From Nitrospirota bacterium (GTDB lineage Bacteria; Nitrospirota; UBA9217), in the NCBI GenBank assembly GCA_963796285.1, contig CAWCKW010000012.1, positions 768,001-832,000 on the forward strand: 64,000 nt of DNA, given 5' to 3'. Position numbers and translations under genes: made by a program. The notes beneath the pieces were generated by a model, which searched no databases, was not told where the DNA came from, and was given only the letters and a program-made list of their open reading frames with translations. Every line of letters begins with the position of its first letter. The first letter of the stretch is position 1. Shown one piece after another: positions 8,842 to 40,781 of the stretch.

Positions 8842-9708
8842 TTGAAAAATAAAACCCAATTCATCGTCGTCGATGATAATGAGGCACTTCTCGATGTCCT
8901 AAAACGATTTCTCGTCATGCAAGGGCATGACTGCGAAGTTTTTTCCAGTGCCGAGGCCGCGCTGGACCATATCACCGATAAACCCTGCGATATTCTTATC
9001 ACCGACATCGTTATGCCTGGCATGAAAGGTTTGCAGCTCACGAAGGAAGTAAGACAATCGTGGCCGGATACGAATGTTATTGTGATGACGGGATTCATTG
9101 ATGATTTTTCCTATGACCAGGCAATCGAAGCCGGGGCTTCGGACTTCATAAAAAAACCGTTTACCATGCATGAAATGATGCTCCGCATCCAGCATGTTCA
9201 TCTGCAAGAGAAGCTGCGGGAGATGTCAAACTCTGATGAGCTTACCGGCCTCTACAATAGACGCGGGTTCTATGCTATCGCGCAACAGCAGTTGAAAATA
9301 GCGAACCGGGCAAAGGGGGAGGTGGCGCTCCTGTTTGCTGATATGGACAAGTTCAAGTCAATTAATGACCAGTGGGGTCACCAAAAGGGTGACGAGGCTT
9401 TATTAGCCATGGCGGACATCTTAAAAAAGACCTTCCGAGAATCTGATCTTATCGCCCGCATTAGCGGGGACGAGTTCGCATTGCTCCTTATTGACACGCC
9501 TGAAAAGAACTTGTCAATTGTCTCCAACCGGTTACAGAAGAACATTGATGCGTTTAATATCCATTCCGGAGTGATGTTCAACCTCTCGCTCAGCGTCGGC
9601 ATGGCTGTTTATGACCATGACAGGCCATGTTCCATAGATGAACTTCTGAAGCAGGCCGACAGGCGTATGTACGAACAAAAGCAGCGTAAGAAAAGCGTTC
9701 AAGCATAA
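8842..9708 (+). CDS. Response regulator receiver-GGDEF diguanylate cyclase
   Basis: REC motifs VVDD, TDIVMP, KPF; DELTGLYNRR, FKSINDQWGHQKGD, SGDEF, RxxD I-site (RESD). Confidence 0.93.
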   Translation: MKNKTQFIVVDDNEALLDVLKRFLVMQGHDCEVFSSAEAALDHITDKPCDILITDIVMPGMKGLQLTKEVRQSWPDTNVIVMTGFIDDFSYDQAIEAGASDFIKKPFTMHEMMLRIQHVHLQEKLREMSNSDELTGLYNRRGFYAIAQQQLKIANRAKGEVALLFADMDKFKSINDQWGHQKGDEALLAMADILKKTFRESDLIARISGDEFALLLIDTPEKNLSIVSNRLQKNIDAFNIHSGVMFNLSLSVGMAVYDHDRPCSIDELLKQADRRMYEQKQRKKSVQA

Positions 9709-9779: not shown

Positions 9780-9868
9780 GCCGCTGTGGCGGAATTGGCA
9801 GACGCAAGAGACTTAAAATCTCTCGACGGGCAACTGTCGTACCGGTTCGATCCCGGTCAGCGGCACCA
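9780..9868 (+). tRNA. tRNA-Leu(TAA)
   Basis: GCCGCTG/CAGCGGC acceptor stem, AGAGA-CTTAAAA-TCTCT anticodon arm, long variable arm, GGTTCGATCCC T-loop, encoded CCA. Confidence 0.97.
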
Positions 9869-34957: not shown

Positions 34958-35221
34958 TTCCATTTTCCACTCATTATATGTTAGTGCCCTGAATTTGTAA
35001 AGATATTTTTGGAAATCAGTAGACAGGGAGTGCTGGACCACAAGCTGTATGAGGCAAATCATATCGGTCTCAATGCGAATCGTTTATAAATATACTTGAA
35101 ATCATCGAGAAGAGCGAGTACTATTTAATCGGTTGAGCTGAGAGATCATCGCGAGAAACCCGAATGCGAACCCGGTTCGATCCTGTAATTATTATTTTTG
35201 CAAGAAAGGATGGATATACCT

Positions 35222-35404
35222 ATGGCTACTCCAAAAGTTGACATGGATCTTTGTATCGGGTGCGGACTTTGCTCTGATCTCTGCCCGAAGGTTTTCGAGC
35301 TCAGGGACGACAAGGCATGGGTCACAAATCCGAATGCCTGCGATACCTGCGATTGTCAGCAGGCCGTGGACAGCTGTCCCGTCACCGCAATTTCATTGGA
35401 ATAG
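35222..35404 (+). CDS. Small [4Fe-4S]/[3Fe-4S] ferredoxin
   Basis: CIGCGLC...CP and distal CPVTAI. Confidence 0.9.
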   Translation: MATPKVDMDLCIGCGLCSDLCPKVFELRDDKAWVTNPNACDTCDCQQAVDSCPVTAISLE

Positions 35405-35429
35405 TAATCAACTCTGTTGCATCCTCTTC

Positions 35430-35458
35430 GAGGGGCGGTCAAGCGCCCCTCTTTCTTT
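35430..35458 (+). terminator. Rho-independent terminator of ferredoxin gene
   Basis: GAGGGGCG-gtcaag-CGCCCCTC followed by TTTCTTT. Confidence 0.7.
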
Positions 35459-35536
35459 AGAATTGTCAATACCTCGTCCTCTGTCTTACATAGTGGCATA
35501 GGGGAGACGTTTTCATGACGTAATTCCAGAATAATA

Positions 35537-35565
35537 TTGACATTGCCATATATTTTTGTTATTCT
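35537..35565 (+). promoter_or_regulatory. Sigma70-type promoter of the GGDEF-lipoprotein pair
   Basis: TTGACA-N17-TATTCT, extended -10 TG. Confidence 0.6.
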
Positions 35566-35592
35566 AAAAATGTTTGCAATGGCTTATCAAAC

Positions 35593-36975
35593 ATGACTAT
35601 TCTGATCTCTCCTAAGATACTGGACAAGCTGGTCCCGACAGGCCTTTTTGCACGTCTCAACATCGCTAACAAAATGCTTTTGGGGTACATGACGCTTGTC
35701 GTGCTCACCGTTATTGTCGTTGCCTATGCCCTCATCAGCCTGCAGCGAATCAATACCTTGAACAGAAGCATTGTTAAAGTTGATATTATGGTGGAAGAAT
35801 CATCTGACAAGATGCTTGATGCCCTGCTCGGCCAGGACATGTACGAGAAGCGCTTTTTGATCCTCAAGAGCAAAGATATGATGGACCTCTTTGCGACACG
35901 GGGAAAGGAATTCAATACGTGGTTTACAATACTCAAGGGCCTTCCCGGCGCGTCCGGTCTTCCCATAGAAAAAACTGAGAAACTTTATCGAAAATACACG
36001 GACCTTTTTACCAAAGAGATCCAGTTGATACGATTAAAGAAGGTAGAGCAGGCATACGCTGTCTCGAATAAAGATCTGAGAAGCGTTACCGATAAGCTTA
36101 TCGAAACACTCAAGGCCATCTCCTCAACTGCCAAGGAAAACCAGGACTTGAAAATGAAACAGATATCCGCTATCGGCGGCAGTGCTTTCCAAACAACGGC
36201 GGTTCTCTGCCTGATAAGCATTATTGCAGGAGCTCTGGCTGTGCTTGTCGTTACCCATCACATTTCATCCTCGATCAATAAATTAAAGGAGGCGACCGAG
36301 CGTGTCTCTGAAGGAAACTTTGATTACGATCCAAAAATCACGACAGAAGATGAAATCGGTAATCTTTCCGATGCGTTTTTGGCCATGGGAAAACGGCTCA
36401 GGAAACTCGAGGAAATGTATCTGGATGCCAGCCCCCTGACCCGCCTGCCGGGTGGAATTGCCATCGAGACGGTTCTTAAAAAACGGATCGACTCCAAACA
36501 CCCGCTCGCCTTCTGTGTCCTCGACCTTGACAATTTTAAGGCATTCAACGACCGGTACGGCTATGCAAACGGCAGCGAGGTCATTAAAGAAACCGCAAAG
36601 ATCATCGATAACGTGGTAAAGACCAAAGGCTCTCCCGACGATTTTATCGGACATGTAGGCGGCGATGACTTTGTGGTCATCACTACGCCGGAATTTATGC
36701 GAGAGCTCTCCACCGAAATCATCAACCAATTCGACCGACGCATACCCGATTTCTACGACCGTGAGGAACGAGAGCGGGGCTATATCCTCGGGAAAACGAG
36801 GCAGGGTATAGAGATGGAATTTCCCATCATGAGCATCTCTATTGCAATTGTGACGAATGAACATCGGAAACTCACCAATCACCTGGAAGCTTCGGAGATC
36901 GCCGCCGAGTTGAAAGACTACGCTAAATCGATACCGAAAAGTGTTTTCGTTGTGGACAAAAGGAGGAATGCGTGA
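35593..36975 (+). CDS. Membrane sensor (2 TM, periplasmic helical domain)-HAMP-GGDEF dinucleotide cyclase
   Basis: Two TM segments, HAMP (DEIGNLSDAF..M), LDLDNFKAFNDRYG, GHVGGDDF. Confidence 0.9.
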   Translation: MTILISPKILDKLVPTGLFARLNIANKMLLGYMTLVVLTVIVVAYALISLQRINTLNRSIVKVDIMVEESSDKMLDALLGQDMYEKRFLILKSKDMMDLFATRGKEFNTWFTILKGLPGASGLPIEKTEKLYRKYTDLFTKEIQLIRLKKVEQAYAVSNKDLRSVTDKLIETLKAISSTAKENQDLKMKQISAIGGSAFQTTAVLCLISIIAGALAVLVVTHHISSSINKLKEATERVSEGNFDYDPKITTEDEIGNLSDAFLAMGKRLRKLEEMYLDASPLTRLPGGIAIETVLKKRIDSKHPLAFCVLDLDNFKAFNDRYGYANGSEVIKETAKIIDNVVKTKGSPDDFIGHVGGDDFVVITTPEFMRELSTEIINQFDRRIPDFYDREERERGYILGKTRQGIEMEFPIMSISIAIVTNEHRKLTNHLEASEIAAELKDYAKSIPKSVFVVDKRRNA

Positions 36976-37415
36976 AGAAGGTTATTGTACTGCTTGCAGT
37001 AATCTGGTTTGCCGGCTGTGCCACAAAGAGCGTCGTGACCGTGACCGGACCGGAAAAGCAGTTTCAGGATGCGGCCGTCTCCGTGAAAGAAAAACGATTC
37101 AAAGAGGCTGCCGCGGCTTGTAATCAAATCATGGCCGACGCCCCTGACTCCCCACTGGCCGCTGACGCACTGTTCGAGCTTGCCCTCATCAACGCATATC
37201 ATGATAATCCCCAACGGGACTATGCACAGGCAACTCGTACATTTTCGGAATTCCTCAAACGCTATCCTAATAACAGACGAGCGGACGAAGCACAGACCTG
37301 GATTTCAGTACTCAGAACAATCCAGGAGTTAAAAAAACAGAATGAACGTCTCAATGAGAGCATTGAGGAATTAAAACAACTTGATATCAGGCATGAGGAG
37401 AGACGAAGAAAATAG
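36972..37415 (+). CDS. TPR lipoprotein with C-terminal coiled coil (QseG/YfhG-like)
   Basis: Lipobox FAGC, TPR-like A..ALFEL...F..YP, heptad tail ending LKQLDIRHEERR; 4-bp overlap with upstream gene. Confidence 0.8.
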   Translation: MKKVIVLLAVIWFAGCATKSVVTVTGPEKQFQDAAVSVKEKRFKEAAAACNQIMADAPDSPLAADALFELALINAYHDNPQRDYAQATRTFSEFLKRYPNNRRADEAQTWISVLRTIQELKKQNERLNESIEELKQLDIRHEERRRK

Positions 37416-40028: not shown

Positions 40029-40636
40029 TTACAATGCACCCCAAATTTTGAGACCCGAACCGTCTGCCAGCCCGTTGCAGACATCTGAACCACCTATACC
40101 AAGAAAATCGCTGGTGGTAGCGGAAGCGACAGGGGCAGGCACAGCAGCATTAGTAAAGGTTCCTGCAACTGCGCCATTGATCCAATAAATGGGGGTAAAG
40201 TCGGAATCAGCACCGAAGCATCTGTCACCGCTCGAGTTTTTCGATACCATGGTAAATGTTCCCCCGTTAGCAGAGGTGGCTATTACGAGATTCACGTTCT
40301 GAGAAATGCCGGTATTAAATGTTGTATCTGCGCTCGGAGCAGTCGCTGAAATTGTGTTTTTTACGACAGTGGCCTGTGGGTTCGCGGAAGTATTCGAGAG
40401 AACAAGCGCCAACTACCAGGAGTACCATCAGCCTTACTCGAGGAATATACCTGCCAGTCAGAGAAGAACGACTCCATAGCTGTGCGCGCATTACGCAAGT
40501 CAGCAGTAGCAGCCGCGTTGTAACCTTTAATACGATAAGCGCTGAACTGCGGGATGGCGATGGCCGCCAAAATGGCGATGATGGCCACCACGATCAGGAG
40601 TTCGATAAGGGTAAAACCTTTTTTATTCATCTTCAT
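40029..40636 (-). CDS. pilA: Type IVa major pilin, one frameshift near 40410
   Basis: KKG/FTLIELLIVVAIIAILAAIAIPQF prepilin motif with E5; C-terminal globular part with two Cys in a second frame. Confidence 0.9.
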
Positions 40637-40781
40637 TGTATTACCTCCCATAAAAAAATAGTTTAACTTCCATTTACTGTTGTTTGTCACAAATATAATT
40701 CAACTTAAGGCCTCTTATGGGATGTCTCACCTCCTTTCAAAGGACTCAAGTTTTTATCCATCGGATTTCGCTATTATGATT

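Follow-up and report, generated by a model that had tools for sequence, protein, structure and literature searches.

A candidate GSU1937-type Hypr GGDEF cyclase gene in a Nitrospirota genome, its adjoining lipoprotein gene and the putative cGAMP signalling parts found with them

The cyclase gene and the architecture of its protein

We have analysed a stretch of 64,000 nucleotides from the genome of a Nitrospirota bacterium (assembly GCA_963796285.1, contig CAWCKW010000012.1, positions 768,001 to 832,000), which we refer to as "the window" and within which positions are counted from the first letter; the analysis is concerned with the gene at 35593..36975 on the + strand, an open reading frame (ORF) that encodes a protein of 460 amino acids. 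The encoded protein comprises a transmembrane helix, a sensor domain, a second transmembrane helix, a HAMP domain and a cyclase domain with the motif GGDDF, making the gene a candidate for a Hypr GGDEF enzyme of the type of GSU1937 from Geobacter sulfurreducens. The original prediction, made from the sequence alone, had proposed for this locus a synthase of cGAMP (3',3'-cyclic GMP-AMP) or of mixed dinucleotides, in which a serine replaces the aspartate that specifies guanine; its span, 36400-36975, covers the C-terminal domain only. To our knowledge, the Hypr GGDEF enzymes are the only route by which the GGDEF family leads to a second messenger other than cyclic di-GMP (c-di-GMP), and the experimental work on them that we know of is confined to Geobacter, Myxococcus and Bdellovibrio.

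The transmembrane, periplasm-sensing layout that had been proposed is borne out by hydropathy, by Pfam and by a structural model; all features of the protein are located on the + strand. The first transmembrane helix (approximately residues 28-50, 35674..35742) is marked by hydropathy windows above 1.6 that start at residues 24-36 and is located inside a longer helix of the model (residues 24-91), and the second (approximately residues 197-221, 36181..36255) is marked by windows above 1.6 that start at residues 193-210. Between the two, at approximately residues 51-196 (35743..36180), the AlphaFold2 model shows an all-helical periplasmic sensor that resembles a four-helix bundle: the helices of this block comprise residues 24-91, 94-116, 125-147 and 151-239, with a predicted local distance difference test score (pLDDT) of 89-97; the Pfam family 4HB_MCP_1 matches the sensor with an E-value of 0.16, under the family cut-off. 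The HAMP domain occupies residues 220-270 (36250..36402; PF00672, E 2.2e-11, scoring 44.3 bits where the cut-off is 25), and is followed at residues 278-458 (36424..36966) by the cyclase domain, which Pfam, the model and Foldseek assign to the GGDEF fold and which belongs to a subfamily with the signature GH[IV]GGDD[F/Y].

The Pfam GGDEF profile (PF00990) matches residues 281-365 (E 5.5e-14, 52.7 bits against a cut-off of 23.8), at profile positions 5-89 of 161 only, and the family TIGR00254 matches the protein with 54.9 bits, against a cut-off of 37.4. The AlphaFold2 model, which has been calculated from a 51-row alignment and has a mean pLDDT of 88.4, contains the helical domain between the transmembrane helices, the HAMP domain and a complete GGDEF fold at residues 306-454; in Foldseek, the domain reaches TM-scores of 0.73-0.79 with the isolated GGDEF structures 4zve, 3i5b and 5euh, and the GacA fusion 6d9m is found at rank 30. 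The model also contains an additional β-hairpin that is specific to the subfamily (residues 397-411, 36781..36825; strands 397-401 and 407-411); this hairpin carries the invariant Arg403, which may have a role there.

The specificity site and the active-site residues

The codon AGC at 36574..36576 (+) encodes Ser328, located inside FNDRYGYANGSEV and, according to the alignments, at the site of the guanine-specifying Asp, i.e. at the site of Ser348 of GacA. The Asp-to-Ser change of the original prediction is thus confirmed at the residue level: in all four residue-level alignments listed with solved domains (5euh, 8c05, 6eib and 4urs), the Asp of the GH..GD helix stands opposite Ser328, and so does the serine of GacA, which reads GH..GS at the equivalent place. 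The active-site motif GGDDF, seen in the translation, is located at residues 356-360 (36658..36672, +); the stretch upstream of it reads SPDDFIGHV, and the protein is therefore without the RxxD inhibitory site, as had been noted. The other GGDEF domain of the window (9229-9693) is canonical, also as noted, reading GHQKGD and SGDEF.

The remaining positions of the pocket have been compared with what has been described for GacA, where Ser348 contacts the Watson-Crick face of the base and Asn339 contacts its sugar face (eLife 2019, PMC6456294). The sugar-face Asn is retained as N319. At the cross-dimer site, the window protein has G287-G288-I289 where 4urs has NRR and GacA has NYR, with no Arg among the three; the same source describes the Arg of the diguanylate cyclases at this site as swapped out in cGAMP-making enzymes (eLife 2019, PMC6456294). 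According to the "Goldilocks" rule given in section 12 of that paper, Ser at the specificity site functions only together with Asp at the third position of the motif; the central motif residue of the window protein is Asp358, as the rule requires. The protein therefore has the Hypr-type Ser at the specificity site, the Asp at motif position 3 and a non-basic cross-dimer residue, and, where a canonical diguanylate cyclase has the guanine-face Asp and GG[DE]EF, it has Ser328 and GGDDF.

Conservation of the serine and the lines of the subfamily

Ser328 is not a sequencing error. The residue is invariant in the 17 homologues that have been aligned (72-100% identity), it is found in 17/17 best matches read from related genomes (61-84% identity), and an independent contig from a sediment metagenome (run X4) spans 36417-36683 with 0 differences; Asp was not seen in any of these. 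The contigs that have been compared with the window come from runs X1, X4, X5 and X20, with 163 lesser variants beyond the matches listed, and the runs that contain the stretch are peat, sediment, wetland and soil metagenomes.

A domain search of 1.84 billion representatives has returned 843 clusters at E<=1e-30, of which the nearest 150 (clustered at 50% identity) have been tabulated together with the query, giving 151 sequences. Positions 3-4 of the motif are DD in 151/151 of these, the second position is G in 151, the first is G in 146, and the fifth is F in 144 and Y in 7; together with the weak match to the sequence of the GacA structure (19.4 bits, E 0.0045), the DD motif agrees with the proposal that the domain belongs to a subfamily separate from that of the REC-type GacA. 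Residues D311, K316, D320, H354, G357, D358, D359 and R403 are kept in 151/151 sequences and K445 in 150/151, and the domain is almost invariant among homologues of 72-96% identity, a pattern that suggests purifying selection on the cyclase domain.

At the specificity site, 87 of the best 150 among the 843 clusters have Asp, 33 have Ser, 29 have Asn and 1 has Lys. In the tree, the Ser and Asn types are located in one group, where the domain starts approximately 240-295 residues into the protein in most full-length members and where the members scanned against Pfam carry HAMP; the Asp types of the GGDDF subfamily have REC, EAL, HD-GYP and histidine-kinase modules as their fusion partners. Within the order of the window's organism, 56 of 64 genomes have a match at E<=1e-40 (27/32 of the high-quality genomes), and many have a second copy, for which Asn has been found in all 16 second matches read (48-65% identity). 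These Asn-type paralogues (e.g. loci L125-L140) often share a genome with a Ser copy, and genome G023 has two of them in tandem; the genome of the window has the Ser type only. The Asn state is not mentioned in the cited passages of the papers used here, and no literature search was aimed at it.

The adjoining lipoprotein gene

The cyclase gene is followed by a gene for a lipoprotein of 147 amino acids with the lipobox FAGC (36972..37415, +), of the TPR/coiled-coil type (Pfam YfiO, E 1.1e-6), whose GTG start overlaps the stop codon of the cyclase. By tblastn, a homologue of the lipoprotein is located downstream of the cyclase in 13/13 related Nitrospirota loci; by an ORF rule, it is found in 11 of these 13 loci, in 23 of 30 loci of the Geobacter family and in one further locus, and in 33 of the 35 loci recovered by this rule, its start overlaps the cyclase stop codon. 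The lipoproteins of the Nitrospirota and of the Geobacter family align with shared motifs (27% identity in a pairwise comparison, E 4e-6). A complex prediction for the periplasmic residues 48-198 and the mature lipoprotein (residues 17-147) has given a score of 0.07, against a mark of 0.32, which speaks neither for nor against binding.

A metatranscriptome contig (run X20, 36865-37114, 10 differences) extends across the junction of the two genes; it has not been used as RNA evidence, because contigs cannot show a transcript and the library may hold DNA. In one Geobacter sp. metagenome-assembled genome (MAG), the cyclase-lipoprotein pair is directly followed by a gene for an 804-amino-acid protein that ends in an HD-GYP domain (L043:5947-8361).

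Relation to GSU1937 and to other known cyclases

According to the passages that we cite from a study of G. sulfurreducens (Int J Mol Sci 2022, PMC8835794), GSU1937 alone among the GGDEF proteins, apart from GacA, has the Ser that defines the Hypr type; it is described there as having transmembrane HAMP domains and GGDDF, as being without EAL or HD-GYP domains, and as having "many homologues within Deltaproteobacteria". The window protein aligns with a protein from a Geobacter sp. MAG with 34% identity (E 6e-93) over residues 21-458, the sensor domain included. Among the matches listed (at least 80 loci, from a contig scan), full-length homologues are found in MAGs labelled Geobacter, Geomonas, Geobacteraceae and Desulfuromonadales, one of these MAGs standing under the title "uncultured delta proteobacterium", and others come from Syntrophales, Smithella, Syntrophus and further Nitrospirota. 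In the family of the Geobacter MAG, 78 of the 81 genomes sampled have a match, exactly one in 75 of the 78, and, of 30 loci taken, all 28 that could be parsed have Ser and GGDDF. As the study reports a single such protein in G. sulfurreducens, the orthologue group of the Geobacter family is probably the GSU1937 group, and the synteny of the shared downstream lipoprotein gene supports this assignment.

The window protein and GSU1937 are alike in their transmembrane helices and HAMP, in the Ser at the position of Ser348 of GacA, in GGDDF, in the lack of EAL and HD-GYP domains, and in having Asp instead of Glu as the presumed general base; they differ in their hosts, the window's gene belonging to the Nitrospirota and GSU1937 to the Desulfuromonadota. 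Within the pocket, the loci of the Geobacter family mostly read GYIKAS, with Asn at the cross-dimer site, whereas the window protein reads GYANGS, with Gly. The TM-HAMP combination of Ser and GGDDF has thus already been published as GSU1937, and its novelty was overrated in the original prediction.

Three other known types of cyclase have been compared. GacA (GSU1658; 5VS9/6D9M) shares the Ser at the Watson-Crick face, the Asn at the sugar face, the Asp in third place of the motif and the absence of a cross-dimer Arg; it differs in being cytoplasmic, with a REC input, in its GGDEF motif with Glu as the general base and in Tyr304 at the cross-dimer site, while the window domain, only weakly related to it, has the additional hairpin 397-411 and belongs to the GH[IV]GGDD[F/Y] subfamily. 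PleD, WspR and DosC (PF00990) share the GGDEF fold as well as the Asp residues that bind metal and the Lys residues that bind phosphate; unlike them, the window protein has Ser for the guanine Asp, GGDDF, no RxxD inhibitory site and no NRR arginines. The third type is that of the YfiBNR system, where YfiN (TpbB, DgcN) is a membrane cyclase with a periplasmic sensor and HAMP and with a lipoprotein gene in its operon. The window protein shares these features, an analogy that would suggest envelope stress as the input; in YfiN, however, the periplasmic domain is PAS-like, the Asp is canonical and the lipoprotein is OmpA-like rather than of the TPR/coiled-coil type. Membership in the DgcN/YfiN family (NF007423) has been rejected, with 47.9 bits against an equivalog cut-off of 325.

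Riboswitches and HD-GYP proteins of the same genome

The scan for GEMM-I riboswitches that had been proposed along with the prediction has been carried out on the genome of the window, which is 96% complete and which we refer to as G000; positions outside the window are given as genome, contig and coordinates. The column of interest is the one that we take to correspond to G20 of Vc2 (in Vc2 numbering), i.e. the last unpaired base before the two-pair helix. Seven aptamers are above threshold, with A in this column in four and G in three. The change of G20 to A has been described as the mark of cGAMP riboswitches (PMC6140456).

The four A20 aptamers are located as follows. Aptamer L007 (G000:C3:340423-340499, -), found with the GEMM-I model, is nearly identical to the GEMM-Ib class of Geobacter; L003 and L004 (G000:C12:950536-950624 and 952655-952743, +) are identical twins located 2.1 kb apart, upstream of paralogous lipoproteins with Ig-like repeats; and L006 (G000:C3:246488-246567, +) precedes CxxCH-rich ORFs that are seemingly split over several frames. 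The genes downstream of the aptamers comprise lipoproteins with Ig-like repeats, a cluster of CxxCH-rich ORFs and Cys-rich lipoproteins. A control genome of Geobacter sp. has 19 aptamers, 15 of them with A in this column. Two further aptamers of the window's genome, L001 (G000:C12:1341586-1341665) and L002 (C13:270679-270757), are scored higher by the Rfam c-di-GMP-I-GGC model than by its parent (69.8 and 64.8 bits); they have been rejected as GGC variants, having A and not G at the position that names the variant, and it seems to be through other features in common that the GGC model detects them.

A strict pattern of the Geobacter-type GEMM-Ib occurs in 12 of the 64 genomes of the order, sometimes in tandem, and in 0 reversed controls. 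The cyclase gene is not enriched with this pattern (a substantial match in 9/12 pattern genomes against 56/64 overall), a result to which we give little weight either way, given the narrowness of the pattern and the kinship of the genomes; in one pattern genome, G061, an N-terminal fragment of the cyclase gene alone is located at a contig end.

The HD-GYP proteins of the genome have also been inspected: among 16 matches, 13 domains have been examined, and they read RxxQ in 2, RxxK or RxxR in 10 and RxxY in 1. The two RxxQ domains belong to neighbouring paralogues that read RRSYQ (G000:C12:716800-717222 and 720904-721377, +), approximately 50 kb upstream of the window, at the place where PmGH reads DRPYK; the RPYK of PmGH presumably corresponds to the RxxK-type motif. 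The RxxQ signature has been proposed for cGAMP phosphodiesterases (bioRxiv 600031). No CD-NTase of the SMODS type has been found in this genome, at its completeness of 96%.

Proposed function and the alternatives

On the evidence of the sequences, the synthase of the original prediction appears to be the best-supported reading: we consider, at a probability of roughly 0.55, that the protein is a GSU1937-type dinucleotide cyclase that senses the envelope, with cGAMP as its main product and probably with some c-di-GMP. The deletion of GSU1937 lowers a cGAMP riboswitch reporter by approximately 25% on fumarate and by approximately 70% on Fe(III) citrate, and one of four REC::GGDDF fusions of GSU1937 made cGAMP and c-di-GMP in Escherichia coli, with the activity of this fusion abolished by a change to GADDF (PMC8835794, section 2.3). 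In the proposed mechanism, the helical periplasmic domain between the two transmembrane helices would receive a signal, perhaps through the co-translated TPR/coiled-coil lipoprotein, and HAMP would pass it on by shifting the dimer's register; in the cytoplasm, the two GGDDF domains would then each bind one purine nucleoside triphosphate (NTP) and join both. The combination of Ser328, the short, Mg-holding Asp358 and the absence of an Arg from the partner subunit stacking on the base would allow each half-site to accept ATP as well as GTP. The resulting cGAMP may be read by the A20 GEMM-I riboswitches that precede genes for surface lipoproteins and multihaem cytochromes, and may be removed by the two RxxQ HD-GYP enzymes.

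Several observations weigh against this reading, and are taken up below together with the alternatives that they concern. The first is one of provenance: orthology to GSU1937 has been judged through MAG homologues of the Geobacter family, which serve as stand-ins at only 34% identity.

Motif position 4, where the Hypr type as modelled on GacA has Glu as the general base, is Asp359, and wild-type GSU1937, as well as three of its four fusions, was inactive in E. coli (PMC8835794). The inactivity of wild-type GSU1937 would fit a degenerate, non-catalytic GGDEF that serves as a nucleotide receptor or scaffold, as would the GGDDF motif in place of GG[DE]EF, the match of the Pfam profile to the first half of the domain only, and the GGDDF/EAL protein PA3258, which shows no cyclase phenotype (cited in PMC8835794). 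We consider it very unlikely: of the 151 sequences tabulated, 150-151 retain the residues that bind metal, phosphate and base, the whole GGDEF fold is modelled at high confidence, and a GGDDF fusion of GSU1937 is active and loses its activity on the change to GADDF.

With respect to the product, the Asp-to-Ser mutant of GSU3350 is still a pure diguanylate cyclase, so that Ser alone is insufficient (PMC6456294), and the active fusion of GSU1937 reached a level of c-di-GMP comparable to that of GacA (PMC8835794). Both results suit an ordinary diguanylate cyclase in vivo, whose Ser variant still takes GTP and feeds the c-di-GMP pool, as do the Asp branch of the GGDDF subfamily, with its fusions to EAL and HD-GYP that are a typical c-di-GMP setting, and the G20 of three of the seven aptamers of the genome. 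This alternative seems unlikely to us, since the Ser is fixed (17/17 and 17/17 in the two samples given above and 28/28 in the Geobacter family), which is hard to explain if Asp were equally good, since the guanine-favouring cross-dimer Arg is absent, and since it is a cGAMP-specific reporter that the deletion of GSU1937 lowers (PMC8835794).

Gly does not appear among the cross-dimer residues given as tested in the cited passages, i.e. Tyr, Ser, Ala and Gln (eLife 2019, PMC6456294). A cross-dimer Gly and an Asp general base could serve a different product, be it c-di-AMP, a linear dinucleotide or a dinucleotide of another purine NTP; in vitro, GacA can form each of the three dinucleotides and also takes other purine NTPs (PMC6456294), and the Asn-fixed sister lineage shows that the pocket residue can be tuned. 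There is no direct hint of another product, and the only experimental data for this type of enzyme report cGAMP and c-di-GMP (PMC8835794); we regard a different product as highly improbable.

The last group of observations concerns the supply of the riboswitches. The GEMM-Ib pattern occurs without a match to the window domain in two genomes, G030 (completeness 97%) and G010 (completeness 74%). Conversely, among six bearers of the Ser type outside the two lineages compared above, G149 and G150 have no GEMM-I, and position 20, which could be placed in 7 of the 10 aptamers of G147, G148, G155 and G156, is G in all 7. One Desulfuromonadales MAG has A20, in a sub-threshold hit. Because of the Ser bearers with G20 only or without GEMM-I, and of the pattern genomes without the gene, the Ser enzyme and the A20 riboswitch are not generally coupled.

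A second candidate synthase is present in the genome: a GacA-like GGDEF protein of 382 amino acids (G000:C12:1973325-1974467, -; locus L020:1432-2580), whose N-terminal part is probably, by analogy, a GAF domain. Among solved structures, GacA is its best relative (E 5.9e-32); the protein retains NYR (at the position of Tyr304) and GH..GS, it has a match at E<=1e-30 in 64/64 related genomes, and its signature is kept in 20/20 loci read. The cGAMP for the A20 riboswitches might come mainly from this enzyme, with the window enzyme being real but having another output; G030, which has the pattern but is without the window's gene, would fit. The motif of the GacA-like protein is GGEEF, however, and Ser/GGEEF is inactive in mutants of GacA and WspR and is reported to be absent among natural Ser/Thr enzymes (PMC6456294). 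Under the published rule the protein should thus be inactive, yet its conservation would argue otherwise; we hold it improbable that it is the main source. The two synthases need not exclude each other, because GacA and GSU1937 both contribute to the cGAMP of Geobacter (PMC8835794).

A wider reading can be formed around the envelope-sensing cyclase. The membrane HAMP-GGDDF clade might be split into a Ser line and an Asn line that make two different dinucleotides, the former cGAMP and the latter a product of an undescribed specificity (adenine-only or another mixed one), both lines being gated by a dedicated, translationally coupled TPR/coiled-coil lipoprotein that moves with the cyclase gene across phyla; in the Nitrospirota, this would occur with a full Geobacter-like cGAMP circuit of two synthases, A20 riboswitches before surface lipoprotein and cytochrome genes, and RxxQ HD-GYP enzymes. 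We put this forward as a doubtful but conceivable extension.

A literature search on Hypr enzymes and cGAMP in the Nitrospirota has turned up a single review and no study of these enzymes there. Relative to GSU1937, our analysis adds an extension to the Nitrospirota, where a full set of candidate parts for cGAMP signalling occurs, the pair of cyclase and lipoprotein genes found across phyla, the lines with fixed Ser and fixed Asn, and a conserved natural Ser/GGEEF enzyme. The occurrence in one genome of two enzymes, GSU1937-type and GacA-like, together with an aptamer close to the GEMM-Ib of Geobacter and RxxQ HD-GYP proteins makes cGAMP signalling in Nitrospirota of sediment and peat directly testable, and would, as in Geobacter, tie the candidate signal to genes for surface lipoproteins and multihaem cytochromes. 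The split of the paralogues into Ser and Asn types offers a handle for swapping the residue, the lipoprotein, as a conserved partner, is a candidate for the input, and the Ser/GGEEF enzyme is a test of the published specificity rule.

Surroundings of the gene and other observations

The cyclase gene is separated from a divergent heptosyltransferase gene by an intergenic region of 530 bp (35063-35592). This region contains a candidate promoter of the sigma-70-like type (35537..35565, +), composed of TTGACA, a 17-nt spacer and TATTCT, with TG before the second hexamer; it has 10/12 consensus matches and is located 28 nt upstream of the start codon, and we treat it as a consensus match only, because the scan gave 8 such sites in the region against 3.3 expected. 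A terminator-like hairpin is also located here (35430-35451, +), with no annotated gene or Rfam family before it. An Rfam scan of the window gave nothing at threshold near the cyclase gene; its sole match is a tRNA at 9780-9865.

The "Geobacter-type pilin locus" said to adjoin the gene is a weak part of the original prediction: what is present is a single pilin-like ORF, 3.4 kb away with four genes in between, for which no link has been found, and it has been rejected as part of the feature. The type IV prepilin N-terminus GFTLIEL is located in the open frame 40361-40699 (-), which overlaps a 127-amino-acid ORF (40029-40412) in a different frame, and the pilin gene may therefore be frameshifted or short.

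Two other GGDEF genes of the genome have been noted. The gene at G000:C12:319244-319681 (+) is matched in three pieces in different frames, and is therefore probably frameshifted. The other, at G000:C12:1400419-1400889 (-) (L016:1465-2622), encodes a multi-pass membrane protein of the canonical subfamily; its specificity residue is Asn (GHEKGN), its motif is GGEEF, and it reads NYA instead of NRR.

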